Source: an uncultured Candidatus Actinomarina sp.
GTDB taxonomy: Bacteria > Actinomycetota > Acidimicrobiia > Actinomarinales > Actinomarinaceae
NCBI GenBank assembly: GCA_902596545.1
Contig: CACJUH010000003.1
Coordinates: forward strand, 45,790-109,789
Reading direction: 5' to 3'
DNA length: 64,000 bases
Each line of letters opens with the position of its first letter. The first letter of the stretch is position 1. A model generated the notes under the pieces. It worked only from the letters and a program-made list of their open reading frames with translations, had not been told where the DNA came from and did not search any database. This document shows positions 14,589 to 37,276 of this stretch, in pieces. The translations under genes and the position numbers were made by a program.

Positions 14589-17558
14589 ATGAAACAGGGG
14601 TTATTAAAAAATTCTGCTTATATTTTTACTTTTTTAATAGCTTTCGCATTGGTGCTATCACCAGAAGAAGAAGCAAAAGCACTAGAGATTAAATATGACT
14701 CAAATATGTTCTGCGTGGATAATGCAGTGGCTCCGCTTAATAATCTCTTAGATATTCAAACATTTCTCAGTTGTAATGGGTTTAATCCAGGACCAATTGA
14801 TGGCTTGAGTGGCTCAAGAACTAATAACGCAATTATAACTTTTCAGAAATCAGTTGGTTTGACTCCTGATGGCGTTGTTGGTCCAGCGACAAAACAAGCA
14901 ATGAGAGGATACAGTACAGTGTCTTTTACTTTCACTGGTAGTGGTTGGGGTCATGGTGTTGGACTTAGCCAATATGGTGCCAAAGGTTTAACAGAACTTG
15001 GTGCAAGTTTTTGCAATGATACTAGCTCATGTACATCTACTGAGGTAGTTGATTATTACTTCAAAGACACTGCCGTAAAAAATCTGTCTGAAATTAGCTT
15101 ATCATCTCCAGATATTGCCACTGATAACAATGCTTTGTGGGTTGGTCTAGCAAGAAACGCCAGGAGTATAAATCTCACTACACTTCCTTCATCTAGTCCA
15201 CCTATGCTCTCTATTTGCCAAGATGGTCTTTCTGATGTGGCAGGAGTTCAAGTATTCTTAACTTCTAGAGGCTTCGAACCCGGTCCTGTTGACGGTGCTT
15301 TTGGTAATAAAACATCAAATGCTTTAAAAAATTACCAAGCATCTGTTGGCCTGAGTCAGTCAGGGAGTATTGATACTGAAACATTAAATAAAATCAAGTC
15401 CGAGGCAAGTTCTGATGGCTCATGTGAATCTATATTTGGACCGCTAAAAATAAGTGGTGGGGCAACAATTAATGTAATTTCAAATGGAAATGGATGCTAC
15501 TTTAATGGTCATCCTCTTGTTAATAGAACAACAGCTAGTTGTAATATTGGTATCAGTTGGTCTGACGGTGGAAGAATTAGAGTTGGACCTCGTGAACACA
15601 AACATGGTGTACTTAAATTACGTTCCCAAAATGTCTCTTCAGGATTTCATGTTGTTTTATCTGTAAATATAGAAAAGTATTTATATGGACTAGCAGAAAT
15701 GCCATCTCACTGGAATGTGAAAGCATTAGAAGCTCAGGCACTTGTTGGTAGGAGTTATGCTGTCTATCAATATTTAAAACAAAATATACCAGCTCAATCT
15801 ACAGATCTGAACGCGGGCTTATCTACATCTAGGCAAGCATATTGTTGGTGTCATATTGGTTCAACCGCATCAAGTCAATATTATTATGGATATTTAAAGG
15901 AAATAGCTGGTCCTAATTGGGTTCAAGCTGTAAATAACACATCAGGAAAAGTCATAACATACTCTGGTGGTTACACTCAAAGCTCTGTAATTCAAGCTTT
16001 CTACTCTTCATCTACTGGTGGAAAAACTAATAATAATGCAGTTGGATTTGGTTCTGCTACGGCATGGCCATACCTGCAAACAGTTGATGATCCTTGGTCA
16101 GTTGACAACAGAGTAGGTAATCCAAAAGCTGCATGGTCTTATGACTTCTCAACTTATCAATTATCCAAAAACATACTGTGTGGAGACATTCCTTGTTTTG
16201 ATTCAATCACAGATATATATATTTCATCTGTAGCGGAATCTGGTGCGGCTATTGAAGTAACAATGAAAGGTTTTAGAAATGGTTCTTCAAAAACTGTTAC
16301 AAAATCAGGAAGAAATATTAAATCTCAATTAGGATTTACTTCTCATTATTTTAAAACATCTAGTCAATCAGATGTGTCTAACCTTTCAATTGGACCAGTA
16401 ACAGTTAACACTTCACCCACTGCTTCTACTAATGGTACAAGTGTTACAAGTACTACTGGTGATGTTGCTCAGTATGCAACTTCTACAGCAGGGTTAAATT
16501 ATTTATCTGGAGCTGGATTGTTAAATAACTGCACTGAAACTTCATCAGCTTGTCAGGCTAAAACTATGACAAGAGAAGAAGCAGCTGCTGTGGTCACAGT
16601 TATCGGAGGAATTTCATTAGATGCACCGAATGCATACAGTGATGATGATGAAAGCATTTTTCAAAAAGCAATTAATGGTATACCTTATTATGGAATACAA
16701 CTGTGTATAGGCAGTCCATTCCAGTTTCAACCAACAGAGGCCATATCTAGAGACCAGTTTGCATGTATGCTTGTCAAAGCCATTACAGCAGGATCTACAA
16801 CAAATTTATCAGGAGCAATAGATAAATACTCTGATGAGGGTGCAAGTAAATGGACAAATGAAATTAATGTTTTGGCTGCAAATGATGTTATTCCAGCTTG
16901 TAGTTCCCTTCAAGATAAATTTTGTCCAAGTAGAAAAATCTCTATTGGTGAAGTTGCATACATAGTGAACCAAATGGTGAATAAATCTTTAATATCAAGC
17001 GATACATTTAATTCAAATCCTTTTCAAGAAGGGTGGTCTGCAAATGGTTCAGAAGTTGAAGATGCTAGTGCAACTGCAGTTTCCAATCCGAATGCAGGTA
17101 ACGATGCATGCGTTCCTAAAGACAATTCAGGTTTGGTTATAAATTCAATATTAGATGTACAACAGTTCTTATCGAATAATGGTTTCAATCCTGGTCCAAT
17201 TGATGGACAAAGTGGGCCAAAAACTGAAAATGCTGTTACCGCATTCCAAAAAGAGAGTGGCCTTCTAGCAGATGGTATTGTTGGTAACAAAACTAAAGAA
17301 GCTATGCGTGCTTATACAGGTTGTAGAAGTACTAATGTTTGTAATGCGAGAGATAATACCGGAGCCAAATTGGATTCAGTCGCAGATATCCAAACATATC
17401 TCTCAAACAATGGATTTAATCCTGGAATAATTGACGGAGAAATGGGTTCTTATACAAAAGAAGCCATAAAAGCATTTCAAAGAAAAGTTGGTTTAATACC
17501 TGATGGTGTGGCTGGAAATAGAACGAAATCCGCTATGCGCGCTTATACAGGCTGTTAA
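14589..17558 (+). CDS. Large secreted cell-wall protein with four peptidoglycan-binding (PGBD1) repeats and a SpoIID/LytB-like domain
   Basis: Signal peptide. PGBD1 repeats occur twice at the N-terminus and twice at the C-terminus (FLSxNGFNPGPIDGxxG...GLxxDGxVGxxT). SpoIID-like motifs EKYLYGLAEMPSHWNVKALEAQALVGRSYA and GSGWGHGVGLSQYGAKG. Confidence 0.7.
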   Translation: MKQGLLKNSAYIFTFLIAFALVLSPEEEAKALEIKYDSNMFCVDNAVAPLNNLLDIQTFLSCNGFNPGPIDGLSGSRTNNAIITFQKSVGLTPDGVVGPATKQAMRGYSTVSFTFTGSGWGHGVGLSQYGAKGLTELGASFCNDTSSCTSTEVVDYYFKDTAVKNLSEISLSSPDIATDNNALWVGLARNARSINLTTLPSSSPPMLSICQDGLSDVAGVQVFLTSRGFEPGPVDGAFGNKTSNALKNYQASVGLSQSGSIDTETLNKIKSEASSDGSCESIFGPLKISGGATINVISNGNGCYFNGHPLVNRTTASCNIGISWSDGGRIRVGPREHKHGVLKLRSQNVSSGFHVVLSVNIEKYLYGLAEMPSHWNVKALEAQALVGRSYAVYQYLKQNIPAQSTDLNAGLSTSRQAYCWCHIGSTASSQYYYGYLKEIAGPNWVQAVNNTSGKVITYSGGYTQSSVIQAFYSSSTGGKTNNNAVGFGSATAWPYLQTVDDPWSVDNRVGNPKAAWSYDFSTYQLSKNILCGDIPCFDSITDIYISSVAESGAAIEVTMKGFRNGSSKTVTKSGRNIKSQLGFTSHYFKTSSQSDVSNLSIGPVTVNTSPTASTNGTSVTSTTGDVAQYATSTAGLNYLSGAGLLNNCTETSSACQAKTMTREEAAAVVTVIGGISLDAPNAYSDDDESIFQKAINGIPYYGIQLCIGSPFQFQPTEAISRDQFACMLVKAITAGSTTNLSGAIDKYSDEGASKWTNEINVLAANDVIPACSSLQDKFCPSRKISIGEVAYIVNQMVNKSLISSDTFNSNPFQEGWSANGSEVEDASATAVSNPNAGNDACVPKDNSGLVINSILDVQQFLSNNGFNPGPIDGQSGPKTENAVTAFQKESGLLADGIVGNKTKEAMRAYTGCRSTNVCNARDNTGAKLDSVADIQTYLSNNGFNPGIIDGEMGSYTKEAIKAFQRKVGLIPDGVAGNRTKSAMRAYTGC
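17150..17555 (+). repeat. Two tandem, diverged copies of a peptidoglycan-binding-domain coding repeat, each ending in ...AMRAYTGC
   Basis: DNA and protein self-similarity: ttatcgaataatggtttcaatcctggtccaattgatgga vs ctctcaaacaatggatttaatcctggaataattgacgga, and gctatgcgtgcttatacaggttgt vs gctatgcgcgcttatacaggctgt. Confidence 0.55.
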
Positions 17559-17559
17559 T

Positions 17560-19470
17560 TTACAATAGATTTAAAATCTGCTGAGATATTTTTTTGGCTT
17601 CCATATTGAAATTATCTTCTAACTGTTCAATTGGTGCTGAAGCCCCAAAGGAATCTATGCTAAAACTTTTTGTTACTGGTCCTACATAGTCTTGCCAGCC
17701 TATCGATCTTCCTAACTCAATAGTGAAAACTTTATTATTAATACCTAGAGAGTCGATTAACTCTGGTTTCAATTTATTAAGTATTGGGGTACTAATTATC
17801 TGTATTGATTTTCCTTTTAACAACTTACTAACTTCCATAGCAAGATTAACTTCTGACCCTGAAGCAAAAATTGTCGCATCAGTTCCATGAGCTAATTCAT
17901 AATACCCTTTTTTAAAATCTTCATAAGAAGTGTTGGTCTCTAAATAGTCAATATTTTGTCTGGTTAAAACTAAAGCTTTTGGATTATTGGTTTTTGAAAA
18001 TATGTATTGATATGAATACACTATTTCTTCACTGTTCGAAGGTCTTATTACGTCAACACCAGGTATAAGTCTTAGTGACATAAGATGCTCTATTGGTTGG
18101 TGTGTAGGTCCATCTTCTCCCAGATAAATAGAATCATGCGTAAATATAAAAACAGAGTTTAATTCCATTAATGCAGCAAGCCTTATGCTTGGCCTCATAT
18201 AATCTGAAAATACCAAAAATGTTGACCCAAACCCAATTAGTGAGCTGTGGAGGGTTATGCCGTTAGTAATTGCAGCCATAGCATGTTCCCTGACTCCATA
18301 TTCAAGAACTTGTCCAGTTTGATTTTCAGATGAATAAACTGCATCCGAAATAATCTGCTTTGTTGATGCTGCTAAGTCTGCTGAACCACCTAGTATAAAT
18401 TTATTAAACTTACCAATATCTTTTAGAACTTGACTACCAGCTACACGTGTTGCTTTTTTTTCACTTAGGGCTGTATTTATATTTACTATGTTTTTTTCGT
18501 TAAATTGATCCCATAAAAGTTTAAATTCAGAATCTTCCAATAATTTTTTTTCAAGTTCTTGTTTCCAATTTTTATATTCTTCATTATCTATTTGTCTTTT
18601 CTCATCAAAATATTCATATACTTCCTTTGGGTGTTCGAAAAGATCAGTCGACCAATCTAAGTTTTCTAAAAATTGTTTCATTTCTTCTTCACCAAGTGGT
18701 GAACCGTGTACACCACTTGTATTTTCTTTATTGGGTGAGAATTTACCAATTGTGGACTTAGCAATAATTAAAGAAGGTTGAGATGTGTTGGCTTTTGCAT
18801 TGTTTACTGCCTTGATTATTTCATTCTCATTATGACCATCTATAGATTGAACATCCCAACCAAAAGATTCAAATTTTGCTTTCTGATTAGTTACTGACAC
18901 CTTGTCTACATTGCCATCAATTGAAATATTGTTATCGTCAAATATATAAATTAATTTTCCTAATCCCCATAAAGCAGCGAGTTCTGCTGCCTCCTGAGAC
19001 AATCCTTCCATCAAGTCCCCATCAGATACAATTCCATAAGTAAAATGATTAATAATTTTATCTCCGAATGTATTTGAAAGATATGACTCTGCTAAAGCTA
19101 GTCCAACTCCAGTTGCAAAACCTTGTCCTAGTGGACCTGTTGTTATGTCAATTCCTAATTTTGTGTCTAACTCAGGATGCCCAGGTGTTTTTGAATTCAA
19201 TTGTCTAAAGTTTTTCATGTCATCTATTGATATATCAAATCCATTAAAGTGCAATAGGCTATATAACAATGCAGATCCATGTCCGGCACTTAAAACAAAT
19301 CTATCTCTGTTAATCCAGTCTGGACAATTGTTTGTGACTTTTAAAAAATTTTTGTATAGAACTGTACCTACATCCGCCATCCCTAATGGCATGCCAGGAT
19401 GACCAGAATTTGCTTTTTCTACACTACCTGCAGAAAGAACTCTTATTGATTTAGTTACATTATCGAACAC
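17560..19470 (-). CDS. tkt: Transketolase (full-length, single polypeptide)
   Basis: N-terminal ANSGHPGMPLGMADV, the TPP-binding region and 636 aa length. Confidence 0.9.
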   Translation of the reverse strand: MFDNVTKSIRVLSAGSVEKANSGHPGMPLGMADVGTVLYKNFLKVTNNCPDWINRDRFVLSAGHGSALLYSLLHFNGFDISIDDMKNFRQLNSKTPGHPELDTKLGIDITTGPLGQGFATGVGLALAESYLSNTFGDKIINHFTYGIVSDGDLMEGLSQEAAELAALWGLGKLIYIFDDNNISIDGNVDKVSVTNQKAKFESFGWDVQSIDGHNENEIIKAVNNAKANTSQPSLIIAKSTIGKFSPNKENTSGVHGSPLGEEEMKQFLENLDWSTDLFEHPKEVYEYFDEKRQIDNEEYKNWKQELEKKLLEDSEFKLLWDQFNEKNIVNINTALSEKKATRVAGSQVLKDIGKFNKFILGGSADLAASTKQIISDAVYSSENQTGQVLEYGVREHAMAAITNGITLHSSLIGFGSTFLVFSDYMRPSIRLAALMELNSVFIFTHDSIYLGEDGPTHQPIEHLMSLRLIPGVDVIRPSNSEEIVYSYQYIFSKTNNPKALVLTRQNIDYLETNTSYEDFKKGYYELAHGTDATIFASGSEVNLAMEVSKLLKGKSIQIISTPILNKLKPELIDSLGINNKVFTIELGRSIGWQDYVGPVTKSFSIDSFGASAPIEQLEDNFNMEAKKISQQILNLL

Positions 19471-19489
19471 AGATTAAGTATATAAGAAT

Positions 19490-21136
19490 CTAAGCAGAGG
19501 CAAAAGAATCTTTTGCATGATATGAAGATCTAACAAGCGGCCCAGATTCAACATGTGGAATACCATAAGATTCACCAATGATTTTATAATCTTCAAATTC
19601 TTCAATTGTCGCATATCTATCTATTGGTCTATGTTTTGCAGTTGGTCTTAGGTATTGACCAATAGTGACAATATCCACTTCAATTTTCGACAAATCTTTT
19701 AATACTGATATAACTTCTTCTTTAGTCTCTCCCATACCAACAATTAAACCAGTTTTAGTTTTACCTATAAATCCTTGTTTTTTTACATACTCTAGCAAAG
19801 AAAGGGACCTTCCGTAAGAAGCAGCCGTTCTAATCTCTCTTTGAAGTCTTGGTACAGTTTCTAAATTATGATTAAAAACTTCTGGAGAGGCATCAATTAT
19901 ATTCTGTATTGCAGATCTTAAACCTTTAAAATCAGGAACTAATACTTCAACATCACAATGACTATTTTTATCTTTAACGGCTCTAATCGTATCAGCAAAG
20001 AACATAGACCCTCCATCTTCAAGGTCATCACGATTAACTGAAGTAATAACCGCATGAGTTAAATTCATTGCCTGGACGCTTTCTGCTACTCTAAGTGGTT
20101 CTCCTAAATCAAGTTCACCAGGCCTTCCAGTTTTTACATCACAAAAACCACAAGCACGAGTACAAACATCGCCCATAATCATAAAAGTTGCAGTTCCCAT
20201 TGACCAGCATTCATATATATTTGGGCATGAAGCTTCCTCGCATACGGTATTTAATTTTTTTTCACTTAATAAATTTTTTAGTGAAACATAATCACTGCCT
20301 AGATTAGCCTTAACCTTCATCCATTCAGGTCTTTTAGGTTCACTTGGCAAAACACCTCTTACAGTTACTGGAATTTTATTTTGGTTTATTTTAAATACTC
20401 CGTCTTTCACCATTTGATCAATATTGAATTCTTTTGTTCTCTTTAACTGCCTTGGGGTAAATTGAGAAAACTGTCTATCAGTATTGGCATAACCAAATAC
20501 TTTTGCAAAGTTATCTGATATTTCACTTGCAACTTCCTCAAATGATATGTCTGGGTTAAATTGGTGAATGGATGTAATTTGTTCTGATTGGTTTCCACAA
20601 GGGTTAATTAATTGATATCCATCCAATGAATCAAAAATATTTAATGAAAAACCATGGTAGGTTGTCCATTTGCTGACTTTAATACCTACAGAAGCAATTT
20701 TACCTTTTGCTGTCCAAACACCTGTGTCATCTTCTTTTGTAAATGAATCAATTTTAAATTTTCTTAAGGAATCAATTATTACATTTTCTAGGTTGCGAAC
20801 GAATGGAATGACTTTTTTTGGATCAGAAAGTCGTAATATTGGATAGCCAATTAATTGTCCATCACCATGATAAGTTATATCACCACCTCTATCAGCTTCA
20901 AAATACTCAATCCCAAGTTCATGCAATTTGTCTTTTGAAACCAGTAAATTGTTTTCTTTGCTAGATCTGCCGGATGTAATTACATTATTGTGCTCTAATA
21001 GTAAAAGATAGTCATCTTTGGAATCTTCCTGAGAAACTGATCTGTGTAATCCAAGTTGTAAATCGTATGCTTCAGAATAAGGTAATTTACCCAACCAACG
21101 TATATTTAGATCTCTCAATCTAATCCCTGCGACCAA
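19490..21136 (-). CDS. lipB-lipA: Fusion of octanoyltransferase LipB (N-terminal) and radical-SAM lipoyl synthase LipA (C-terminal)
   Basis: The N-terminal half has RGGDITYHGDGQLIGYPI and PCG, with strong similarity to mycobacterial LipB. The C-terminal half has CEEASCPNIYECW and CTRACGFCDV (radical-SAM CxxxCxxC). Confidence 0.8.
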   Translation of the reverse strand: MVAGIRLRDLNIRWLGKLPYSEAYDLQLGLHRSVSQEDSKDDYLLLLEHNNVITSGRSSKENNLLVSKDKLHELGIEYFEADRGGDITYHGDGQLIGYPILRLSDPKKVIPFVRNLENVIIDSLRKFKIDSFTKEDDTGVWTAKGKIASVGIKVSKWTTYHGFSLNIFDSLDGYQLINPCGNQSEQITSIHQFNPDISFEEVASEISDNFAKVFGYANTDRQFSQFTPRQLKRTKEFNIDQMVKDGVFKINQNKIPVTVRGVLPSEPKRPEWMKVKANLGSDYVSLKNLLSEKKLNTVCEEASCPNIYECWSMGTATFMIMGDVCTRACGFCDVKTGRPGELDLGEPLRVAESVQAMNLTHAVITSVNRDDLEDGGSMFFADTIRAVKDKNSHCDVEVLVPDFKGLRSAIQNIIDASPEVFNHNLETVPRLQREIRTAASYGRSLSLLEYVKKQGFIGKTKTGLIVGMGETKEEVISVLKDLSKIEVDIVTIGQYLRPTAKHRPIDRYATIEEFEDYKIIGESYGIPHVESGPLVRSSYHAKDSFASA

Positions 21137-22392
21137 TCAGGGTTTTCTAATTTATCCTTTATATGATTTAAAAATAACAAAGCAATAGAGCCATCGAATA
21201 CTCGATGATCCCAAGTTAAACTTAGGACTCCTGTATGCCTTATAGCTATTGAATCAGTACCATCCTGGGATTGTATTACTACAGGTCTCTTCTTAACAGA
21301 TTCCGTTGATAAAATAGCTACATTTGGTTGATTGATTATTGGCGATGTAATGAAAGAGTTAAATGAGCCATTGTTTGATATTGTAAAAGTACTTCCAGTT
21401 ACATCCTCTAGACCATACTTACCATCTCTTAATAGCTTTGAAATTTCTGAAATTTTTCTTGCTAGCCCTTTCAAATTAAAGGAATCTGCTTCAGCTATAG
21501 TACCGACTAACAGCCCCTCTTGATTTAAATCAACAGCAATACCAAGATTTACATGACTATGAACATCATGAATGCCTTTTTCTAAGTCAAACGAGCTATT
21601 AACAGTTGGAAACTCCCTTAATGCAGAAATTGTCGCTAATGAAATGAATGGTAAATAGGTTAGCGAAAAACCATTTTCATCTTTAAATTTAGCTTTTTGT
21701 TTTGATCTAATTGTTTCTATATTTTCATAATCTACTTCAACAGAGGTCATGACGTGTGCAGATGTTTGTTTAGACAAAACCATATTTTCTGCAATTCTTT
21801 TTCTCAATCTAGATATTGATTTATTTGTATCAGCTGATTTAGTAGTTTCTTTTTTAATTGAATCCTCTGATTTAGTTGATGTAGCAGAGTCTTGATTTCC
21901 TAATGAAATGTAATTTTCAATATCTTCTCTTTTTATTCTTCCATTTTGACCAGTGCCAACTACATTATTCAAATCAATATTATTTTCAGAAGCAAGTCTT
22001 CTTACAACTGGAGAAAGCTTTAAGTTTTTTGTATTTCTGACATTATCGGTTTTTGGCAAAACATCTGCTTTTGGTGTATCTTCTTTGACAATCTCTTCAA
22101 CGGTTTCTTGCACTTCTTCAACTGTCTCTGATTTATCATTATTAGATTCTTTTGCACTTCCATCGAGCTCAAGAAGTGAAGCCCCAACCTCTACAGTTTC
22201 ACCCTCTTCAACAAGAAGTGATGTTACTGTTCCATTAAATGGTGAAGGAACTTCAGTATCAACTTTATCAGTAGAAATTTCAAGAATTGGATCATCTTCT
22301 TTTACTTCATCACCAACTTTTACAAGCCATCTTAGGATTGTGCCCTCAGTGACTGTCTCTCCGAGCTGAGGCATAGTTATTATGTTGCTCAT
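21115..22392 (-). CDS. Dihydrolipoamide acyltransferase (E2) of a 2-oxoacid dehydrogenase complex, with a single lipoyl domain
   Basis: Lipoyl-Lys in ISTDKVDTEV, an Ala/Pro/charged linker, and catalytic DHRVFDG. Confidence 0.85.
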   Translation of the reverse strand: MSNIITMPQLGETVTEGTILRWLVKVGDEVKEDDPILEISTDKVDTEVPSPFNGTVTSLLVEEGETVEVGASLLELDGSAKESNNDKSETVEEVQETVEEIVKEDTPKADVLPKTDNVRNTKNLKLSPVVRRLASENNIDLNNVVGTGQNGRIKREDIENYISLGNQDSATSTKSEDSIKKETTKSADTNKSISRLRKRIAENMVLSKQTSAHVMTSVEVDYENIETIRSKQKAKFKDENGFSLTYLPFISLATISALREFPTVNSSFDLEKGIHDVHSHVNLGIAVDLNQEGLLVGTIAEADSFNLKGLARKISEISKLLRDGKYGLEDVTGSTFTISNNGSFNSFITSPIINQPNVAILSTESVKKRPVVIQSQDGTDSIAIRHTGVLSLTWDHRVFDGSIALLFLNHIKDKLENPDWSQGLD

Positions 22393-22396
22393 TTAC

Positions 22397-24403
22397 TTAT
22401 TGTAATTCTTTCACGGCTTTAACAACTTTTTCAACACTAGGAATAAAAGCATCCTCAAGAACTGGTGCAAAAGGAATATGTGTATTAGGTGGAGTAACCT
22501 TCACAATTGGATTATCTAAATTCCAAAATCCTTTTTCAGCAACTACTGATGATATCTCAGAGGCTACTGATGAAAAAGGGACATCTTCTTGTAGGATGCA
22601 CAAATTAGATGTTTTTTCAACTGATGTAAGAATTATCTCCTCGTCAAGAGGAACTATTGTTCTTATGTCAACAATTTCAACATTTATACCGTCGCTTTCA
22701 AGTTGCTTGGCTGCTTCAGTCGCAACAGAAACCATGCCAGACCAGGTAACAATTGTAAGATCACTACCTTCTTTAACAATTTTTCCTTTCCCTATTTCAA
22801 CTTCATAGAGACCTAATGGAACTTCCATTTTGATATCAGGTTTTCTATAGAGTTTTTTGTGTTCAAGATACATTACTGGATTTGGATCATTTACTGCAGC
22901 GACTAAAAGTCCCTTAGCATCATAAGGATTAGACGGTGCAACGACTTTAATACCAGGATGGTGAGCTAGCAGAGATTCTGGGCTTATTGAATGAAAAGGT
23001 CCAGATCTTGTTCCAGCACCAGTAGGACCTCGAACAACCATTGGTACGGCCTTTCCTGCTTTCCAATGGTATTTTGCGGCTTCAGTAGTAATTTGATCTA
23101 AAGCTGGATAAACAAAATCATAAAACTGTAATTCCACGATAGGTTTCTTTCCTGCAAGAGCTGCTCCAACTGCAGCTCCAGTGAAACCTCCCTCAGAAAT
23201 TGATGTATCAATTACTCGAAATGGTCCGTATTTATTAAATAATCCCTTAGTAGCTTTAAATGCTCCTTCAAACACACCTATGTCTTCACCCATCATGAAA
23301 ACATTTTCATCATCTTCCATTAATTCATCTAAACCGTTTGTAATTGCTTCAATAAAGTTCATAGTTTCTTTTGAACTTCCATCATTTTGTATTGCTGGTT
23401 TAGTTCTTTCAGCAAACATATCAGGAACTTCATTTTGCGGTTCAGGATCTTTTTGATTCTTTGCCCAATCTAATGTCTCTTTAATTTCAGCATCTAGCTC
23501 TTCATTAAGGCTTACGAACTGTTCTGTAGTGAATAAACCCTCTTCAACCAAAGAGTCTTCAAAGCGTGCAATAGGATCACGTTTCATCCAGAATTCTCTT
23601 ACTTCATCATTAACATATTCGGCAGGATCGTGACCAGCATGTCCATGATGTCTAAATGTAACAAGTTCAATTAGAGAAGGTCCATTACCATTTCTTGCAT
23701 TTTCACATGCTTCGTGCATTACATCAATTACTTCATAAATGTCATTACCATCAATAATTTTTGCTGGAATTCCATATCCAGCTGCACGATCTGCAACGTT
23801 TGGAGTCCCAAACTCTGTTTCGTTTGGAGATGAATAGGCAAATTGATTATTTTGCACTGTGAATACTACTGGAAGATTGAGCACTCCGGCCATGTTGATG
23901 CTTTCATGCCAAGTACCAGTTGCAGTGGCTCCCTCACCACAATTAGCAACAGCGACAACCCCGGACCCACTTTGTTGAGAAGCTAGAGCCCAACCAACAG
24001 CTACAGGTGCGGAATCTGGCAACGGAGATACAACCATCAATGTTCCCTTGTCTACTACTCCAAAATGACTATTACCATCTCGACCTTTAGATGGTCCATC
24101 ATGTTTTCCAAAAAAATTAAGTGCAATCTCTTTAAGTGTCACACCTTTTTTAATTTGCACACCGAGATCTCTGTGTGTACCACCAAATATATCTGTGTCT
24201 GCCATTCCAGCCGCTATGCCAGCCATAGATGCTTCTTGACCAATTCCAGGATATACTGCACCACTTAATTGCCCACCCTTGTACATTTTTAAGAGCCTAT
24301 CTTCCAAAAGCCTCTGAGTTTTCATAGACTTATATACATCCCAAAGTTGCTCTTTAGAAAGAGTTGACGAATACCCTTTTCTGGTAATTTTTTCGATCTT
24401 CAT
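22397..24403 (-). CDS. 2-oxoacid dehydrogenase E1 component, fused alpha-beta subunits
   Basis: 668 aa. The N-terminal half has the TPP motif GEGATATGTWHESINMAGVLNLPVVFTVQNN (E1 alpha). The C-terminal half is transketolase-like E1 beta (pyrimidine-binding and C-terminal domains). Confidence 0.8.
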   Translation of the reverse strand: MKIEKITRKGYSSTLSKEQLWDVYKSMKTQRLLEDRLLKMYKGGQLSGAVYPGIGQEASMAGIAAGMADTDIFGGTHRDLGVQIKKGVTLKEIALNFFGKHDGPSKGRDGNSHFGVVDKGTLMVVSPLPDSAPVAVGWALASQQSGSGVVAVANCGEGATATGTWHESINMAGVLNLPVVFTVQNNQFAYSSPNETEFGTPNVADRAAGYGIPAKIIDGNDIYEVIDVMHEACENARNGNGPSLIELVTFRHHGHAGHDPAEYVNDEVREFWMKRDPIARFEDSLVEEGLFTTEQFVSLNEELDAEIKETLDWAKNQKDPEPQNEVPDMFAERTKPAIQNDGSSKETMNFIEAITNGLDELMEDDENVFMMGEDIGVFEGAFKATKGLFNKYGPFRVIDTSISEGGFTGAAVGAALAGKKPIVELQFYDFVYPALDQITTEAAKYHWKAGKAVPMVVRGPTGAGTRSGPFHSISPESLLAHHPGIKVVAPSNPYDAKGLLVAAVNDPNPVMYLEHKKLYRKPDIKMEVPLGLYEVEIGKGKIVKEGSDLTIVTWSGMVSVATEAAKQLESDGINVEIVDIRTIVPLDEEIILTSVEKTSNLCILQEDVPFSSVASEISSVVAEKGFWNLDNPIVKVTPPNTHIPFAPVLEDAFIPSVEKVVKAVKELQ

Positions 24404-24404
24404 A

Positions 24405-25769
24405 TTAATGTAACCCCCTACCGTTCAAACTTAACAAAGACTCTCCTATAGCCTCACTCAGTGTTGGATGAGCATGTATAAATTCAGATGCTTCATTAGG
24501 TAAAGCTTCCCAGCCTACCATGTACATAAGCTCATGTATCATCTCTCCTGCTGCAGGTCCACAAACACTTGCACCTACTATTGGGCCATCCTCTTCTGAG
24601 TAAACTTTTACAATTCCTTTATTTTGATTTTGAAGTAATGCCCTTCCGATTCCAGCAAAACTATGCTGTGCTTGATTAAGCTTAATTCCAATTTCCTTTG
24701 CTTTTTCAGAGTTCAATCCAACCTCTGCAAGTTCTGGTCTTGTGTAAACAACATACGGAATCGCTTTATAGTTAACAGGACTACTCTCACCTGTTGCGAT
24801 ATGTGTTATCGCACTAATTGCTTCAGCAAATGCAACATGAGCTAATTGAGGAGTATCATAAACAATATCTCCTAAGGCATAAATATTTTCAACATCTGTT
24901 TGCATTGTTTTTAAATCTACTTCAACAAATCCTTTGTTAACATTTACCCCAATTTCTTCAAGACCAATATTTTCAGTTAAAGGTGCTCTTCCGACTGCAA
25001 CAAGAACACAATCAAAACTATCACTGGTATCATCTGAAAAATTAACAACTTTGTCACTAATATTTGTAACTGATGTAGATAATTTAAAATCAACACCCCT
25101 AGAAGATAACTGTTTCCTTAGTTCTCCTGATGTTCTTTTATCCAATCCGGGTAAAATTTCTTTATCAAGCTCCACAACAGAGACTTCTGAGCCCAAATCG
25201 TTTAACAAACTTGCAAACTCACAACCAATTGCACCAGCACCAATAACACAAACTTTTTTTGGAGGCTCCTCCCAGCTAAGCGCGGTGTCTGATGTTATAA
25301 CAAACTCTCCATCAACATTTATGTTTGGGATTTCTCTTGGTTTTGAGCCAGTTGCTAAAAGAATGTAGTCTGTAGATACTTCTTCTTCTTTGCCTTCAGT
25401 AGTCTTAACAATAACTTTATTGCTATCCTTAATAGTCCCCCAGCCTTCAATAACATTAACTTTTTTTGACTTTAATAGCATGCCGATACCACCAACTAGT
25501 TTGTTAACAGTATCTAGTCTTTTTTGAGCAGTTGCTTTCCAATCAATATTTTTACCTGTTATTTCAATTCCAAAATCTTTTGAATTATCAATTTCATGAT
25601 TTAGCTCTGCAACATGAAGCCAGTACTTTGCAGGTATACATCCGCGGTTTAAACAGGTCCCACCTAAGGTATCAGATTCAATTAAAGTTATTTCAAGTTC
25701 AAAATTGCTTGCGTACAATGCTGCAGCATATCCTGCAGGACCTCCGCCTATAATGGTTAATTTTTTCAA
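24405..25769 (-). CDS. lpdA: Dihydrolipoyl dehydrogenase (E3)
   Basis: GGGPAGY FAD motif, redox-active disulfide CLNRGCIPAK, and a C-terminal HAHPTLSE. Confidence 0.9.
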   Translation of the reverse strand: MKKLTIIGGGPAGYAAALYASNFELEITLIESDTLGGTCLNRGCIPAKYWLHVAELNHEIDNSKDFGIEITGKNIDWKATAQKRLDTVNKLVGGIGMLLKSKKVNVIEGWGTIKDSNKVIVKTTEGKEEEVSTDYILLATGSKPREIPNINVDGEFVITSDTALSWEEPPKKVCVIGAGAIGCEFASLLNDLGSEVSVVELDKEILPGLDKRTSGELRKQLSSRGVDFKLSTSVTNISDKVVNFSDDTSDSFDCVLVAVGRAPLTENIGLEEIGVNVNKGFVEVDLKTMQTDVENIYALGDIVYDTPQLAHVAFAEAISAITHIATGESSPVNYKAIPYVVYTRPELAEVGLNSEKAKEIGIKLNQAQHSFAGIGRALLQNQNKGIVKVYSEEDGPIVGASVCGPAAGEMIHELMYMVGWEALPNEASEFIHAHPTLSEAIGESLLSLNGRGLH

Positions 25770-25993
25770 ATTACCTCTTTCTAGATAGGATCGCTATCTA
25801 ATCGAGATAATAACTACATTCTTTAATGGGGTTCCCAATAAAAATGATTATTGTTATTTTCACCTTTAAATTTACTAAACTTTGGACAATGTTCAAAATT
25901 AAGATTATCTTAAAAAACATTACAATGTAACTATGCAAACAAGACATTTAATTATTGCCTCACTTATTACTGGTTTATTCATACTGGTAGCAT

Positions 25994-26980
25994 TTGGTGT
26001 ATGGCTATACACTTTTTGAATTGAAGAGTTTTAATTTAAAAAACGGAATCCATCATATACCTCTTGAGCTCCCTTGGTCGTCTCCTGGCTTTGTTAATGT
26101 TTATTTAATTGAAGACAAAGGTGGATTTATCATGGTAGATTGTGGTGTCAATGGTGATAGCTATTACTCCTTACTGCTTGAATATCTTCAAAAATTAGAA
26201 ATTCATATTAGTGATATTAATTTGTTAATCGGAACACATATGCATTCTGATCATATTGGTTTATCTACGAAAATAAGAGAATCAGGTGTTCCGTTTGCAC
26301 TTTTTAAAAATTCAGTAGATTTCATAGATGATTACAATGACTGGTCTTTAAGATTCAAAAATCTAAAAAATTATGCAGAAAAACATAATGCTCCAACTAG
26401 CTTTTTGAATGATATAGCTTCTATAAAAACACCCTCATATGCTGGAAAAATTTCAAAGCCTGACATTCTTCTTGATGAAGGGAGAATAAAAGATGTAAAA
26501 AGAAATTTAACTACTATTTTTACTCCGGGGCATGATCGTACAGAGATTTCTTTGTTTGATGAAAGTACAAAAATAATATTTTCAGGCGATCATATATTGC
26601 CAAAAATTACTCCCTTTATTCCAACTGATAATGAAAATGAAGATATGCTTGCAAATTACACTCAGTCTTTGGATAAAATTTATGAAATTGACCATGAAAT
26701 AATTGCACCAGGTCATGGAGATATAATTAGCAAACCACACAGCAGGATTGAGCAAATGAAACTTCATCATAAAAGGAGGACTGAAAAAATTTTGAACTTT
26801 CTTAAAGAAAGCGACTTTACTGGTTGGGAAATGGTTGAAAATTTATTTCCTAGAAAACTAGATGCATTAAATTTGAGACTTGCTTTTCAAGAGACTATGG
26901 CTCATTTAATTTACTTAGAAAATAAAGGAAAAATCAAGCAAGAAACTAAAAATAACTCCATATATTGGAAAATTATTTGA
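25994..26980 (+). CDS. MBL-fold metallo-hydrolase
   Basis: HMHSDHIG (HxHxDH) and downstream His/Asp ligands. The annotated start is TTG, so the true start is uncertain. Confidence 0.6.
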   Translation: MVYGYTLFELKSFNLKNGIHHIPLELPWSSPGFVNVYLIEDKGGFIMVDCGVNGDSYYSLLLEYLQKLEIHISDINLLIGTHMHSDHIGLSTKIRESGVPFALFKNSVDFIDDYNDWSLRFKNLKNYAEKHNAPTSFLNDIASIKTPSYAGKISKPDILLDEGRIKDVKRNLTTIFTPGHDRTEISLFDESTKIIFSGDHILPKITPFIPTDNENEDMLANYTQSLDKIYEIDHEIIAPGHGDIISKPHSRIEQMKLHHKRRTEKILNFLKESDFTGWEMVENLFPRKLDALNLRLAFQETMAHLIYLENKGKIKQETKNNSIYWKII

Positions 26981-27181: not shown

Positions 27182-28303
27182 TTATAGGCTCAGTAATTCT
27201 GCAATCTTATCTCTTGCTAATTTGGGAGTCCCTAAAAGTAAAGAGTCAGACTTTGCTTTTTTAAAAAATAAATGTGCTGGATGCTCCCAAGTAAAACCAA
27301 TTCCCCCATGTACTTGAATATTGTCTCCAGCGATTTTGTTAAAAACCTCAGAACAGTATGATTTTGCTAACATTGCACTCATCTCAACTTCTAAATCGTC
27401 TGAAGTATCTGTTCTCACTGCACTATAAGCAACAGACTTTGCACTTTCCAGCTGTACAAGCATATTTGCACAAATATGTTGAATTGCTTGAAATGAACCT
27501 ATCGGCCTTCCAAATTGTATTCTTTCTTTTGCGTATTGTGTTGACATATCTAAACATGCTTGAGCACCACCAACTTGCTCCATTGCTAAATAACCAAGTG
27601 AAATATTTTTTACTTTCTCCCATGCATTAATGCATGAATCAGAACCTATCATAATTTCATCATCAGAAATTAAAATTTCTTTCATATTTATTTCACACAT
27701 AGGTCGTGTTTGATCAAGTGAAGAAGTTTGTTTTATTTCTAGACCCTCAGAATCTTTATTTACCAAAACAAACATTAACCCCTCTTCACTGTTCGCCAGA
27801 ATTGCAAAATAATCAGAGACGTCGCCAAACATTACATATTTTTTTTGCCCATTAAGAATGTAACCATTCTTATCTTTTGTCAAAGTTGTGGAAATTTCAT
27901 CACTACTAGTTAGGTATTTATCATTTTCATAAACACAATAGGTACCAATTTTTTCACCACTAATAATTTCCGGCAAAATAGTATTTTTTATATTTTCATT
28001 TGAAAGGAAAAGTAAATTCTTGAATACCACTCCAGAACTAAAAAGAGGAATAATTGGCATGTAATACCCTAAGACCTCTGAGAGAATTGCAGTGTCCGTG
28101 TTCGAAAATCCCAAACCACCATCTGATTCTGGTACATCAAGTGCTAACCACCCTTGTTCAATTACTAATTTCCATATATTTTCATCTAACCTACAATTAT
28201 CATCAACTTTTTGTATTGTCTCTAATAAATCAATATTCTCTTTTAGGAGTTTCGTTGAATTTTCTTTTATTTCTTTTTGAATTTCATTTAAAGTAAATTG
28301 CAT
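27182..28303 (-). CDS. Acyl-CoA dehydrogenase family protein
   Basis: GSFQAIQHICANM and a C-terminal IQVHGGIGFTWEHPAHLFFKKAK with the catalytic Glu region. Confidence 0.8.
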   Translation of the reverse strand: MQFTLNEIQKEIKENSTKLLKENIDLLETIQKVDDNCRLDENIWKLVIEQGWLALDVPESDGGLGFSNTDTAILSEVLGYYMPIIPLFSSGVVFKNLLFLSNENIKNTILPEIISGEKIGTYCVYENDKYLTSSDEISTTLTKDKNGYILNGQKKYVMFGDVSDYFAILANSEEGLMFVLVNKDSEGLEIKQTSSLDQTRPMCEINMKEILISDDEIMIGSDSCINAWEKVKNISLGYLAMEQVGGAQACLDMSTQYAKERIQFGRPIGSFQAIQHICANMLVQLESAKSVAYSAVRTDTSDDLEVEMSAMLAKSYCSEVFNKIAGDNIQVHGGIGFTWEHPAHLFFKKAKSDSLLLGTPKLARDKIAELLSL

Positions 28304-28378
28304 TATCTAATTGTAATTTTTATTTTTTATTTCGCTAATCATATTCAAGTTGTTTCAAATGATAATTATTATGTACAT

Positions 28379-29104
28379 ATGTTAGAAATTAAAAATTTGC
28401 ACGCTGAAGTTGATGATGTAGAAATTCTAAAAGGTGTTGATTTAAAAATTAATCCTGGTGAAGTCCATGCAATTATGGGTCCGAATGGTTCTGGTAAGTC
28501 AACTCTTGCAAACGTTGTGATGGGTAATCCTGTGTATGAGATTTCTAAAGGAAATATTATTTTTGAAGGTGAAGACATAACAGAAGAGCCTGTCGATAAT
28601 AGGGCAAAATTAGGCATGTTTTTAGCTTTTCAATATCCAGAATCTATACCAGGAGTAACAATTGTTAATATGTTAAAAACTGCTCTTACGAATATAGAGG
28701 AAACTGAGTACACCACATTAGAACTTCGACTAAAAGTAGCAGAATCAATGGAGCAACTTGGACTATCTGCGGATTTTGCTGATCGTTATTTAAATGAAGG
28801 ATTTTCTGGTGGCGAAAGAAAGAGAAATGAGATTTTGCAATTAGCTGTTTTAGATCCAAAATTTGCGATTTTGGATGAAACTGACTCTGGTTTAGATGTT
28901 GATGGACTTAGAGTAGTTGGTGAAGGTGTTAGTAAATTGAAAACTGATGACAAAGGCTATTTAGTAGTTACTCACTATCAAAGGTTGCTTGAGTACATTA
29001 AGCCAGATTTTGTTCATGTTTTTGTTGATGGAAAAATTGTTGAATCTGGTGGTGTTGGACTATCTGATAAACTAGAAAAAGATGGGTACGAATCTTATTT
29101 ATGA
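28379..29104 (+). CDS. sufC: SufC-like Fe-S cluster assembly ATPase (second paralog in this window)
   Basis: MLEIKNLHAEVDDVEILKGVDL...GPNGSGKST (Walker A), LSGGERKR and a D-loop. The start was moved from 28298 to the ATG at 28379, which follows the divergent intergenic region. Confidence 0.8.
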   Translation: MLEIKNLHAEVDDVEILKGVDLKINPGEVHAIMGPNGSGKSTLANVVMGNPVYEISKGNIIFEGEDITEEPVDNRAKLGMFLAFQYPESIPGVTIVNMLKTALTNIEETEYTTLELRLKVAESMEQLGLSADFADRYLNEGFSGGERKRNEILQLAVLDPKFAILDETDSGLDVDGLRVVGEGVSKLKTDDKGYLVVTHYQRLLEYIKPDFVHVFVDGKIVESGGVGLSDKLEKDGYESYL

Positions 29105-30321
29105 TAAAAGTCTCAGATATTAAAAAAGATTTTCCAATTTTTGAACGTCAAATAAATGGAAACAAATTAACATATCTTGATTCTGGAGCAACATCACAAA
29201 AACCAAATCAAGTTATAGATGTAATGTCTGATGTTTATAAAAATAATAATGCAAATGTCCATAGAGGAACTTATGTACTATCGTCTGAAACAACAGGTAA
29301 ATACGAAGATGTTAGAACTAAATTTCAGAAATTTATCAATGCGTATGATTCAGATGAAATAATTTTTACTAAAGGATGTACAGAAGGTTTTAATTTACTT
29401 TCAAATTCTATTTGTAAAAACCTAAATCAGGGTGATGAAATAATTTTGTCAGAAATCGAACACCACGCAAACATAATTCCATGGCAAATGGCAGCTGAAA
29501 AATACAATTTAAATATCAAGTTTATAAATGTCGATGAATCTTTCAACTTAGATATAGATCATTTAAAAAGTCTATTGAGTTCGAAGACAAAAATTGTCTC
29601 AATCGTTGGTGAGTCCAATATTTCTGGAATGTTACCCGACATTAAAGAAATAGTAACTATTGTAAAATCAAAATCGGATGCGTTATTCATTCTTGATGGT
29701 GCTCAACTTGTACCTCATAGATCAGTAGATGTTCAAGACCTTGGTATAGATTTTTTATGTGTATCCGGACACAAGATGCTTGGGCCAACAGGAATAGGAG
29801 TTGTTTGGGGTAGGAAAGAACTCTGGGACTCTATGGATCCAGTATATGGCGGTGGAGACATGATTGAAGAAGTTTACTACGACAAAGCAACTTGGGCGCC
29901 TGTTCCACATAAGTTTGAAGCTGGAACGCCTCCGTTTGTTGAGGCAATAGGTTTAGGTGCCGCTGTGGATTATTTAACTAATATTTCCATGAATGAGGTC
30001 CAACAACACTCTGACAGTCTAAGAGAATACGCAAAAAATAAACTTGAAAATATCGATGGTTTAAATATTATTCACTCTTTATCAAAAAATGCTGGATGTA
30101 CTTTTGCAATGAGCATAGAGGGAGCCCATGCAACAGATGTTTCCTTGATGCTTGATACTTATGGAGTTGCCGTAAGAGCTGGTCATCATTGTGTTCAACC
30201 ATTTCACAGGAAATTGAATTTGGATGCGACTTTTAGAGCTACTGGATATATATATAATGACGAAGAAGACTTTGACATTCTTGCAAATGCTATTGAAGAT
30301 AGTATGAAAATGCTTAAATAA
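29101..30321 (+). CDS. sufS: Cysteine desulfurase SufS (class V aminotransferase)
   Basis: PLP lysine in SGHKMLGPTGIGV and the catalytic Cys region HHCVQP. Placed between sufC and sufE. Confidence 0.85.
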   Translation: MIKVSDIKKDFPIFERQINGNKLTYLDSGATSQKPNQVIDVMSDVYKNNNANVHRGTYVLSSETTGKYEDVRTKFQKFINAYDSDEIIFTKGCTEGFNLLSNSICKNLNQGDEIILSEIEHHANIIPWQMAAEKYNLNIKFINVDESFNLDIDHLKSLLSSKTKIVSIVGESNISGMLPDIKEIVTIVKSKSDALFILDGAQLVPHRSVDVQDLGIDFLCVSGHKMLGPTGIGVVWGRKELWDSMDPVYGGGDMIEEVYYDKATWAPVPHKFEAGTPPFVEAIGLGAAVDYLTNISMNEVQQHSDSLREYAKNKLENIDGLNIIHSLSKNAGCTFAMSIEGAHATDVSLMLDTYGVAVRAGHHCVQPFHRKLNLDATFRATGYIYNDEEDFDILANAIEDSMKMLK

Positions 30322-30734
30322 TGAGTATTGAAGAAAAAGTTTCAAACTATAAAAAAACTTTAGAGATTTTTCCAAATCCGCAGGAAAAATATCAATATTT
30401 AATTGAACAGGCAAAGAAAAGTGACGAATTTCCTATTGAACTAAGGGTAGACGAATTCAAAGTAAATGGATGTCAAAGTCAAGTTTGGCTCGTACCAGAA
30501 GAAAAAGATGATAAGTTGTTTTTTAAAAGCGACTCGGATGCATTGATTGCTAAAGGACTTGTAACATTAATAGCTGCTATTTACTCAAACGAAACAGCAG
30601 AAGATATTGCTAACTCTCAAATTGACTTAATGGAAGAGTTTGAGTTAGGCGTGATATTAAGCCCTGCCAGAAGAAATGGTGCCTTCAGTATGTTAAAAAC
30701 TATAAGAGAATTTGCTCTTAAATTAACTGATTGA
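30321..30734 (+). CDS. sufE: SufE-like sulfur acceptor protein
   Basis: Conserved NGCQSQVW persulfide-carrier cysteine motif. 137 aa. Confidence 0.75.
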   Translation: MSIEEKVSNYKKTLEIFPNPQEKYQYLIEQAKKSDEFPIELRVDEFKVNGCQSQVWLVPEEKDDKLFFKSDSDALIAKGLVTLIAAIYSNETAEDIANSQIDLMEEFELGVILSPARRNGAFSMLKTIREFALKLTD

Positions 30735-35884: not shown

Positions 35885-35921
35885 TAAATGATACCAGTGA
35901 GTGTCAAAAGGAGATAACTTG
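35885..35921 (+). promoter_or_regulatory. Candidate PyrR-binding loop and RBS region in the pyr operon leader
   Basis: AUACCAGUGAGUGUC resembles the PyrR binding-loop core UCCAGAGAGGCU (8 of 12). A GAUAC/GUGUC mini-stem is possible. The site abuts the AAAGGAG Shine-Dalgarno and an alternative TTG start at 35919. Confidence 0.25.
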
Positions 35922-36401
35922 GATATAAACAAAGCTCTTTTTCGCCTGAGTAAAGAGATTACAGAATCTGAATTCAATAATCCTTTGTTGATAGGTATTC
36001 CAAGAAGAGGAGATTTGTTAGCGAAAAGATTATCAAATAATCTTATTCAATTTAACTATTCTCACGACTTGGATACTGTTGACTATTTACCGTTTAGAGA
36101 CGACCTAGAAAAAGAAGTTAAAAAAACAAATTTATCTATCAATCCTGAAGATCGAGAAATTATTTTAATAGATGATGTTATATATACGGGTCGAACACTA
36201 AGAGCGTCCATTGAGGCAGTAGTATTTTCGGGAAGACCAAAATCTATATCTCTTTTGTGTTTAATAGATAGAGGACATAGAGAGTTACCAATCTCACCCA
36301 AATTTATAGGAAAAAATATTCCAACGAACGAAAATGAATACGTATCAGTTTTTCTTCAAGAGATTGATGATGTCGATAAGGTTGAGGTTACAAACATATG
36401 A
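35901..36401 (+). CDS. pyrR: Bifunctional pyr operon regulator / uracil phosphoribosyltransferase PyrR
   Basis: IILIDDVIYTGRTLRASIEAV...LIDRGHRELPISPKFIGKN is the PyrR signature. The track start is GTG at 35901. A TTG at 35919 with an upstream AAAGGAG is an alternative. Confidence 0.8.
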   Translation: MSKGDNLDINKALFRLSKEITESEFNNPLLIGIPRRGDLLAKRLSNNLIQFNYSHDLDTVDYLPFRDDLEKEVKKTNLSINPEDREIILIDDVIYTGRTLRASIEAVVFSGRPKSISLLCLIDRGHRELPISPKFIGKNIPTNENEYVSVFLQEIDDVDKVEVTNI

Positions 36402-37276
36402 AACATCTTTTAGATTTTCAAAATATTCAAAAAAAAGAAATGGAAAAGCTAATAGAAGAGATTTTAAAAGTAGATTTATATAAATTGAATCAAATCAAAT
36501 CATTAACTCTATTGCAATTTAATGAAAACTCAACAAGGACAAGGCTGTCTTTTGCAATTGCAGCAAAGAGGCTTGGAATAGATATTGTTGAATCAACTGA
36601 CAATATTTCTGCAAAATCTAAAGGAGAAGGATTGATGCATGAGTTAGAAACGTATCAATCTATGGGTATTGAAACAGTCGTAATTAGAAGTAGTGAAAAC
36701 AACATAGAAGATTACAAAAATTATAAAGAAGTAGCAATAATTAGTGGGGGTTTTGGAAACTCATCTCACCCAACACAAGCATTAGTTGATGCAGCTACCT
36801 TAATGAAACTTGGTAAATTTAATTATGATATCCCTGTTACCTATGTAGGAGACCTGAAGCATTCAAGAGTATTTTCATCCGGAAGAGAGCTTTTGAATAA
36901 ACTAGGTTTTAAAGTTGGAGTTTTTACAAATGAAGAACTTATCCCTGAAAATACGGATGGTCTTAATATTTTTAATTCCTGGGATGAAGTAATAGAAAAT
37001 TCTGGATCTTTAGAATTATTAAGAGTTCAAAAAGAAAGAATAGAAAATCTTTCTAGCTTTAACTTTGAGAAATATATAAAACATTTCCAACTAAGTAATG
37101 AAGTACTTTCGCAAACTCCACCAGATTTTGCAGTTTTTCATCCAATGCCAATAAATATTGGTATAGAAATCGATGAAATTGCAGCAAAAAATGAAAAATT
37201 TAAATATGGAGAGCAACTCAAGTTTGCAATTCCAGCAAGAATAATCAGTTACAGATATGCACTAGGAAATATATGA
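36398..37276 (+). CDS. pyrB: Aspartate carbamoyltransferase catalytic subunit
   Basis: ENSTRTRLSF (STRTR carbamoyl-phosphate motif) and HPTQAL. Overlaps pyrR by 4 nt. Confidence 0.85.
   Translation: MKHLLDFQNIQKKEMEKLIEEILKVDLYKLNQIKSLTLLQFNENSTRTRLSFAIAAKRLGIDIVESTDNISAKSKGEGLMHELETYQSMGIETVVIRSSENNIEDYKNYKEVAIISGGFGNSSHPTQALVDAATLMKLGKFNYDIPVTYVGDLKHSRVFSSGRELLNKLGFKVGVFTNEELIPENTDGLNIFNSWDEVIENSGSLELLRVQKERIENLSSFNFEKYIKHFQLSNEVLSQTPPDFAVFHPMPINIGIEIDEIAAKNEKFKYGEQLKFAIPARIISYRYALGNI

Follow-up and report, generated by a model that had tools for sequence, protein, structure and literature searches.

A conserved LipB-LipA fusion beside the E2 gene of a 2-oxoacid dehydrogenase cluster in Candidatus Actinomarina

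LipB and LipA joined in one polypeptide

The closest described counterparts of the protein reported here are the separate LipB octanoyltransferases and LipA lipoyl synthases of the two-gene pathway, as in Escherichia coli, Mycobacterium tuberculosis (structures 1W66 and 5EXI/5EXK) and Thermus thermophilus (2QHS), and the NCBIfam family NF053790 (LplA_LipA_fuse; bifunctional lipoate-protein ligase / lipoyl synthase), whose existence makes the transferase-synthase fusion a recognised kind of protein. In this study, we analyzed a 64-kb stretch of DNA (hereafter the window; guanine plus cytosine (GC) content about 33%) from Candidatus Actinomarina (OCS155), in which a single open reading frame (ORF) on the minus strand, here called lipBA, joins a LipB and a LipA domain directly after the E2 gene of a 2-oxoacid dehydrogenase cluster. 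This fusion of LipB and LipA is genuine and conserved; as a variant of the well-known two-enzyme pathway it is uncharacterised and under-annotated.

LipBA agrees with the two-gene systems in its domains, their folds, the Cys/Lys dyad, the CX4CX5C, CX3CX2C and RSSY motifs and the predicted chemistry, and its LipA half is 47% identical to M. tuberculosis LipA. It differs from them by carrying both predicted activities on one chain with a conserved linker of 43 residues. The family NF053790 likewise places an attachment domain of the LplA/LipB superfamily N-terminal to LipA. However, LipBA scores only 382.7 against that model, whose cutoff is 800, and aligns to profile positions 328-605, the LipA half, only; its N-terminal domain is of the LipB type, dependent on octanoyl-acyl carrier protein (octanoyl-ACP), in contrast to the ATP-dependent LplA type of NF053790. 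No description of a natural LipB-LipA fusion was found in the literature searched. A survey of lipoate assembly discusses LplA-LplB fusions only (PMC10332631), and the Actinomarinales genome paper mentions neither this fusion nor the fused E1 described below (PMC7771536). The name 'lipBA' denotes in the literature a two-gene operon in Shewanella, or lipases. The parts of the fused ORF are as follows.

19490-21136, minus strand: LipB::LipA fusion ORF, 548 aa at most (Pfam/NCBIfam)
20477-21115, minus strand: LipB octanoyltransferase domain, residues 8-220 (TIGR00214, NF010925; alignment to 1W66 and 2QHS)
20348-20476, minus strand: LipB/LipA linker of 43 residues, residues 221-263 (conserved; 126-sequence alignment)
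19490-20347, minus strand: LipA lipoyl synthase domain, residues 264-548 and the stop codon (TIGR00510; NF004019, residues 264-547; alignment to 5EXI)

The earlier note on this DNA, made from the sequence alone, had read the ORF as a complete LipB followed by a complete LipA, and this reading is borne out by curated models as well as by the catalytic residues, which are all kept. The LipB half exceeds the equivalog cutoffs of TIGR00214 (141.8, cutoff 83.55) and NF010925 (157.5, cutoff 155), and the LipA half those of TIGR00510 (357.9, cutoff 310.25) and NF004019 (406.4, cutoff 203). The motifs quoted in the note were all located. In the LipB half, the motif RGGxxTxHxxGQ is present as RGGDITYHGDGQ at residues 83-94 and PCG at 179-181, and the dyad K146/C180 corresponds to Lys142/Cys176 of M. 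tuberculosis LipB (1W66), with T. thermophilus 2QHS aligned as well. The LipA half has the auxiliary-cluster cysteines C299/C304/C310 (CX4CX5C), the radical S-adenosylmethionine (SAM) cysteines C325/C329/C332 (CX3CX2C) within CTRACGFC at 325-332, and the C-terminal RSSY with its serine ligand at 536-539. The LipB dyad and motif, the LipA cysteines and RSSY are invariant across the 126 aligned sequences, GC-rich relatives included. No second lipB, lipA or lipoyl domain was found within the 64-kb window.

The AlphaFold model of LipBA has a mean pLDDT of 81.9 and a pTM of 0.85, with the LipB and LipA halves both confident and well folded. The predicted LipB half superposes on 2QHS and 1W66 with TM scores of 0.94 and 0.85, whereas LplA structures match at 0.45-0.73 only, so that the N-terminal half has the LipB fold without the LplA accessory domain. 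The predicted LipA half matches 5EXK with a TM score of 0.92. No PDB chain spans both halves, the highest query-normalised TM score being 0.50.

Judged from domain identity, conservation and gene context, it is likely that lipBA encodes a genuine bifunctional octanoyltransferase/lipoyl synthase, formed by the merger of neighbouring actinobacterial lipB and lipA genes. The LipB domain would transfer the octanoyl group from octanoyl-ACP through a thioester at Cys180, with Lys146 assisting, to the lipoyl lysine K43 of E2, the presumed substrate, and would presumably also act on any other lipoyl protein of the cell. The radical-SAM LipA domain would then insert two sulfurs at C6 and C8, using two SAM, with its auxiliary 4Fe-4S cluster as the sulfur source. 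A flexible tether between successive enzymes acting on one protein-bound lysine probably favours the hand-over of the octanoylated lipoyl domain, and it is plausible that the halves pass it from one to the other. Should LipB and LipA both be active, a single polypeptide would be able to perform octanoyl transfer as well as sulfur insertion; LipBA would then be a natural fusion of the type used to infer functional links between proteins, and a compact single-gene lipoylation module for complementation, for structural study of the hand-over and for synthetic biology.

Conservation of the linker and spread of the fusion

The 120 best matches of LipBA share 98-99% identity with it and were drawn from independent ENA, JGI, NCBI and Logan assemblies; each has both domains and a length of 548 or 542 aa. 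In a scan at one genome per species, the fusion was intact in 57 species-level loci with identity from 99% down to 68%. Their titles are nearly all Candidatus Actinomarina, OCS155 or Actinomarinales, and they include single-cell genomes, short-read metagenome-assembled genomes (MAGs) and long-read MAGs of about 1 Mb. Among the fusions compared, the linker motif of the window was shared only by three proteins (P0241, P0265, P0287) and two loci (L050, L051) of 65-66% GC. With P0241 as query, at least 120 more clusters (90% identity) were obtained, of fused proteins of 550-556 aa with the same linker, named "lipoyl synthase [Acidimicrobiia bacterium]" by NCBI and encoded on contigs of 1.7-4.2 Mb. 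Two of these GC-rich Acidimicrobiia fusions, P0453 on the largest contig (4.16 Mb) and P0414, agree with the window in domain order and linker motif at 50-53% identity. The fusion is fixed throughout the Actinomarinales examined, as it is in a large clade of GC-rich Acidimicrobiia.

The linker is nearly as conserved as the LipB domain, with a mean column identity across Actinomarinales of 0.68 against 0.73 for LipB and 0.83 for LipA. Six of its residues (Q222, F226, D240, G246, F248 and G261) are invariant in the 126-sequence alignment, which includes the GC-rich clade. A counterpart of the 43 residues is absent in Nonomuraea. One subclade of Actinomarinales (L043, L048, L049, L055) has an insertion of 17 residues at about 262-263, just before the LipA N-terminal motif, which looks as if the 'NEP.RPEW' stretch preceding LipA had been repeated in tandem in a degenerate form. 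The part of the linker near LipA therefore tolerates a change in length.

From a further search of 1.84 billion cluster representatives (50% identity), the domains were mapped on the best 150, among which 62 have the order LipB-LipA and seven the order LipA-LipB. Members are found in Planctomycetota (MBN1422490.1), Sumerlaeota (MCX7013382.1), Elusimicrobia (OGS28186.1) and other Acidimicrobiia. The fusions of other phyla, in either order, possess the same two domains as the window, but their linkers are unlike it in length and unrelated in sequence, and they are probably separate fusion events. In a neighbor-joining tree of LipA domains, fused and unfused proteins interleave; the tree is star-like and poorly resolved, and the 24 changes between fused and unfused states that it implies are indicative only and not a count of events. 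The LipB-LipA fusion is a minority form that recurs, probably through multiple origins; it is not unique to Actinomarina and not rare across bacteria. The earlier note had called it at least uncommon, which holds in the sense of a minority architecture and not in the sense of rarity, given at least 62 other clusters in several phyla. A search of a plasmid collection with LipBA returned separate lipB and lipA genes only, and in several Proteobacteria the two are adjacent separate genes.

Fused proteins are labelled "lipoyl synthase", "lipoic acid synthetase", "LipB, partial" or "hypothetical protein" in the databases. The note would have taken its reading as refuted if the architecture turned out to be common and already annotated in relatives, and this is partly the case: it is indeed common there, although the annotation reads just 'lipoyl synthase'. 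Thousands of entries with no other name than "lipoyl synthase" also hold a complete LipB, and lipB may consequently be wrongly reported as missing in Acidimicrobiia, Actinomarinales and several other phyla.

A possible, if somewhat unlikely, alternative is that the fusion is selectively neutral, a stop codon having been lost between adjacent co-expressed genes, so that LipB and LipA simply work independently on one chain, without hand-over or kinetic gain. The genes lipB and lipA are neighbours in many bacteria, and the recurrence of fusions with unrelated linkers in both domain orders is what easy and mostly inconsequential merging would produce. Against neutrality, the six linker residues named above are invariant across genomes from 33% to 66% GC, and no reversion was found in the 57 species-level genomes or in the at least 120 GC-rich clusters. 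Two observations weigh against the main reading. The model of the linker has low confidence (pLDDT 37-51, and below 50 at 226-240 and 249-260, apart from a short predicted helix at 238-244), and this low predicted order over most of its length also suits the neutral account. In the fusions of other lineages, PCG and the first LipA cysteine motif lie 73-155 residues apart, and the reverse domain order exists too; the fusions therefore seem to need no particular geometry, and a strict channelling model is weakened by this. The strongest form of the functional reading is doubtful. It would make the conserved linker residues a docking site at which the lipoyl domain of E2 (or ACP) stays bound through octanoylation and sulfuration without release, with translation coupled to E2 through a TTGA overlap, as an obligate channelling machine. 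Were the docking role true, LipBA would offer a tractable single-protein model for the hand-over of a protein-bound intermediate from LipB to LipA.

Gene order, origin and reading frame

The gene cluster around lipBA comprises the following features.

24405-25769, minus strand: lpdA, dihydrolipoyl dehydrogenase (E3), 454 aa (TIGR01350, 460.8 against a cutoff of 408.8)
22397-24403, minus strand: E1 alpha-beta, single chain, 668 aa (Pfam/NCBIfam)
21115-22392, minus strand: E2 acyltransferase, 425 aa (PF00364, PF02817, PF00198)
22165-22380, minus strand: single lipoyl domain of E2, residues 5-76, with lipoyl-lysine K43 in TDKV (codon 22264-22266)
17560-19470, minus strand: tkt, transketolase, 636 aa (TIGR00232, 689.4 against a cutoff of 682.25)

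The order on the minus strand is lpdA, E1 alpha-beta, E2, lipBA and tkt, as the earlier note had given it. E1 starts 1 nt past the lpdA stop and is separated by 4 nt from E2; lipBA, which the note had placed directly downstream of E2, even overlaps the E2 gene, and tkt begins 19 nt 3' of lipBA. The first gene of the cluster is lpdA, preceded by a 224-nt spacer and a divergent MBL-fold gene, and it is syntenic in all Actinomarinales loci and in the GC-rich relatives. By tblastn, every sufficiently long locus of the 57 has lpdA-E1ab-E2-lipBA-tkt. Spacing and synteny suggest that the cluster is an operon, with tkt probably co-transcribed with lipBA. A scan of 17000-26500 for promoters and terminators was uninformative, the sites being no more numerous than in shuffled sequence.

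Besides its lipoyl domain, E2 has an E3-binding domain and a catalytic domain (Pfam), and its top NCBIfam match is SucB_Actino with a score below the cutoff. It is 56-64% identical to the E2 proteins adjoining lipBA in the GC-rich loci L059 and L060. The E2 of L059 (8283-10004) has 573 aa against 425 aa in the window. A single lipoyl-domain match was found in both, and the Actinomarina E2 thus seems to be shortened mainly in the inter-domain linkers.

In L059 the genes are arranged as acyl-CoA dehydrogenase ... lpdA, E2, lipBA (with a 4-nt overlap), peptidase M24, MDMPI_N, tkt, a 222-aa ORF, Cob adenosyltransferase and peptidase M17, and the region is collinear with the window by tblastn. The GC-rich Acidimicrobiia share with the window the position of lipBA in lpdA-E2-lipBA, including the overlap of 4 nt, and the wider synteny from acyl-CoA dehydrogenase to tkt, the ORF (220 aa in the window), Cob adenosyltransferase and peptidase M17. 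They differ in their GC content (about 65% against 33%), in the lack of E1 between lpdA and E2, and in the two extra genes, peptidase M24 and MDMPI_N, between lipBA and tkt. Compared with L059, Actinomarinales have E1 alpha-beta between lpdA and E2, by gain here or loss there, and tkt adjoins lipBA because the two intervening genes are missing in the window, not through a functional link. A gene for a 989-aa protein with four PG_binding_1 repeats and SpoIID (14589-17558, plus strand) is found, in opposite orientation, between tkt and the genes for the 220-aa ORF, Cob adenosyltransferase and peptidase M17; since these directly follow tkt in L059, it is an insertion relative to L059.

Nonomuraea gerenzanensis (L058) has lpdA, E2, lipB and lipA in the same order on one strand, like the window. 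There lipB is not fused to lipA; the two genes are read in different frames, other ORFs stand between them, and the neighbourhood is far less tightly spaced. The order dlaT-lipB-lipA is also that of M. tuberculosis and Mycobacterium. The linkage of E2, lipB and lipA thus looks ancestral. In the simplest scheme, the fusion probably arose by merger of neighbouring lipB and lipA in an actinobacterial lpd-E2-lipB-lipA neighbourhood, in the common ancestor of Actinomarinales and the large GC-rich clade of Acidimicrobiia, and would since have been kept by purifying selection, including the 43-residue linker with its invariant residues. In Actinomarinales, E1 between lpdA and E2 would complete a self-contained E3-E1-E2-maturase cluster. 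An origin of the fusion in the genome streamlining of Actinomarinales was rejected, as both the fusion and its linker are shared by GC-rich relatives whose contigs reach 4.2 Mb; the fusion therefore predates the streamlining. The comparison is a tidy case of a streamlined genome compacting an ancestral neighbourhood, with E1 between lpdA and E2, the intervening genes lost and tkt now adjacent.

These comparisons also bear on the suggestion of the earlier note that the fusion and its co-transcription with E2 evolved to fix the stoichiometry of the lipoylation module and its substrate in a minimal cell. In favour of this, LipA destroys its own auxiliary cluster at each turnover and is hence partly reagent-like. 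Also, the probable TTG start of lipBA shares the letters TTGA (21115-21118) with the E2 stop, an overlap that would fit translational coupling between E2 and lipBA and that L059 has too. On the other hand, lipBA abuts E2 with no overlap in some genera, LipB and LipA are catalysts that presumably serve other lipoyl proteins too, and the occurrence of the fusion after E2 on Acidimicrobiia contigs of up to 4.2 Mb argues against an adaptation of minimal cells. The median intergenic distance in Actinomarinales is 2-3 bp genome-wide (PMC7771536), and the tight packing is therefore not particular to the lpdA-E1-E2-lipBA cluster. As E2-lipB-lipA linkage is also seen with separate genes in Nonomuraea, guaranteed stoichiometry finds no specific support, and we regard it as highly unlikely.

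The start of lipBA itself was placed differently by gene callers, giving proteins of 548 or 542 aa. The TTG at 21118 (codon 7) is kept in 20 of the 21 relatives examined and shifted by two codons in the remaining one, and in-frame stops occur just 5' of it in several relatives, where the longer ORF from TTG 21136 is unusable. The real start is thus probably TTG 21118, with a protein of 542 aa, instead of TTG 21136 with 548 aa.

It is most improbable that the cell makes LipA additionally, or for the most part, as a protein of its own by initiation within the linker region, either at the near-invariant M273 or at a TTG at L264 preceded by AAGAGGTG. Such a start would suit a Shine-Dalgarno-like GAGGT just 5' of L264, the near invariance of M273 and the position at which unfused LipA homologues begin (about query residues 250-268). 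However, the GAGGT precedes the TTG by only 3 nt and the ATG by 27 nt, and the codons in question specify conserved residues (R259, G261 and W272-M273, of the LipA N-terminal motif), whose conservation at the protein level accounts for them. No in-frame stop between LipB and LipA was found in any relative, and the sequence holds no convincing signal for an internal start of LipA. The least probable explanation, an assembly or sequencing artefact by a frameshift or a lost stop codon near 20350-20480 or, for E1, 23370-23400, is excluded; nothing was found in its favour, and the continuity of both junctions, which the earlier note had wanted to see checked, is confirmed by the identical architecture in more than 120 independently assembled, near-identical proteins and in the 57 species-level genomes, single-cell, short-read and long-read, from 99% to 68% identity.

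The single-chain E1 and other genes of the window

The E1 of the cluster consists of two parts on one chain.

23399-24403, minus strand: E1 alpha part, about residues 1-335 (PF00676 E1_dh at 27-322)
22400-23365, minus strand: E1 beta part after a short linker, about residues 347-668 (PF02779 Transket_pyr at 347-520; PF02780 Transketolase_C at 538-660)

The chain is uninterrupted in all relatives. Nearly all of the 120 E1ab relatives listed have exactly 668 aa, and E1ab aligns as one piece (1-668) in the tblastn comparison of the 57 loci. Its nearest solved structures are the separate alpha and beta chains of E1 from pyruvate dehydrogenase (PDH) or branched-chain 2-oxoacid dehydrogenase (BCKDH), and we expect an ordinary single-chain version of the heterotetramer-type E1, forming an (alpha-beta)2 dimer. 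Labels for its substrate class are mixed. The beta half exceeds the PDH E1-beta subfamily model (340.3 against 321), whereas the alpha half stays under both PDH alpha cutoffs; PDB matches include PDH and BCKDH, and '2-oxoisovalerate dehydrogenase E1 component' is what JGI calls the protein of Actinomarina.

The fusion of E1 alpha and beta into a 668-aa chain, reported in the earlier note as unusual, is correct as a description, while the architecture is already catalogued and nothing new, RefSeq annotating 'alpha-ketoacid dehydrogenase subunit alpha/beta'. The protein so named from Rhodovulum sulfidophilum (WP_042465840.1) has E1_dh, Transket_pyr and Transketolase_C in one polypeptide with E2 adjoining, like the window. 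It is only about 29% identical, has 730 instead of 668 aa, belongs to another phylum and has neither lpdA nor lipBA within 4 kb on either side. Matches to E1 as a single feature were also found in Saprospira, Paracoccus and Ruegeria. KEGG K11381 is presumably the fused form of E1. Its name is the one used by JGI, and it is listed separately from the KEGG orthologs of the alpha and beta subunits, in a source that does not itself state that it is fused (PMC11815872). The literature search on fused E1 gave nothing useful beyond this listing.

Upstream of the lpdA-E1-E2-lipBA cluster, at a distance of 2.5-5 kb, sufC (ABC ATPase), sufS (class-V aminotransferase / cysteine desulfurase) and sufE are encoded on the plus strand at 28298-30734, with no sufB or sufD seen between them. 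These are genes of Fe-S cluster assembly, close to the gene of LipA, which consumes a 4Fe-4S cluster. An ORF of 728 aa at 366-2552 (minus strand) matches no Pfam family at E <= 1e-5. The gene cofD (2-phospho-L-lactate transferase) adjoins cofE (F420 gamma-glutamyl ligase) at 2836-4423 (plus strand), which implies the biosynthesis of coenzyme F420 in a very small genome. A pyrimidine operon begins with a gene of the phosphoribosyltransferase family (35901-36401; possibly pyrR) and continues with pyrB, pyrC, carA, carB, pyrF and pyrD at 36398-43895. Its last gene, pyrD (43218-43895, plus strand), encodes only 225 aa that match just the C-terminal positions 190-274 of the 291 in the DHO_dh profile, and the product may be a divergent or shortened dihydroorotate dehydrogenase.

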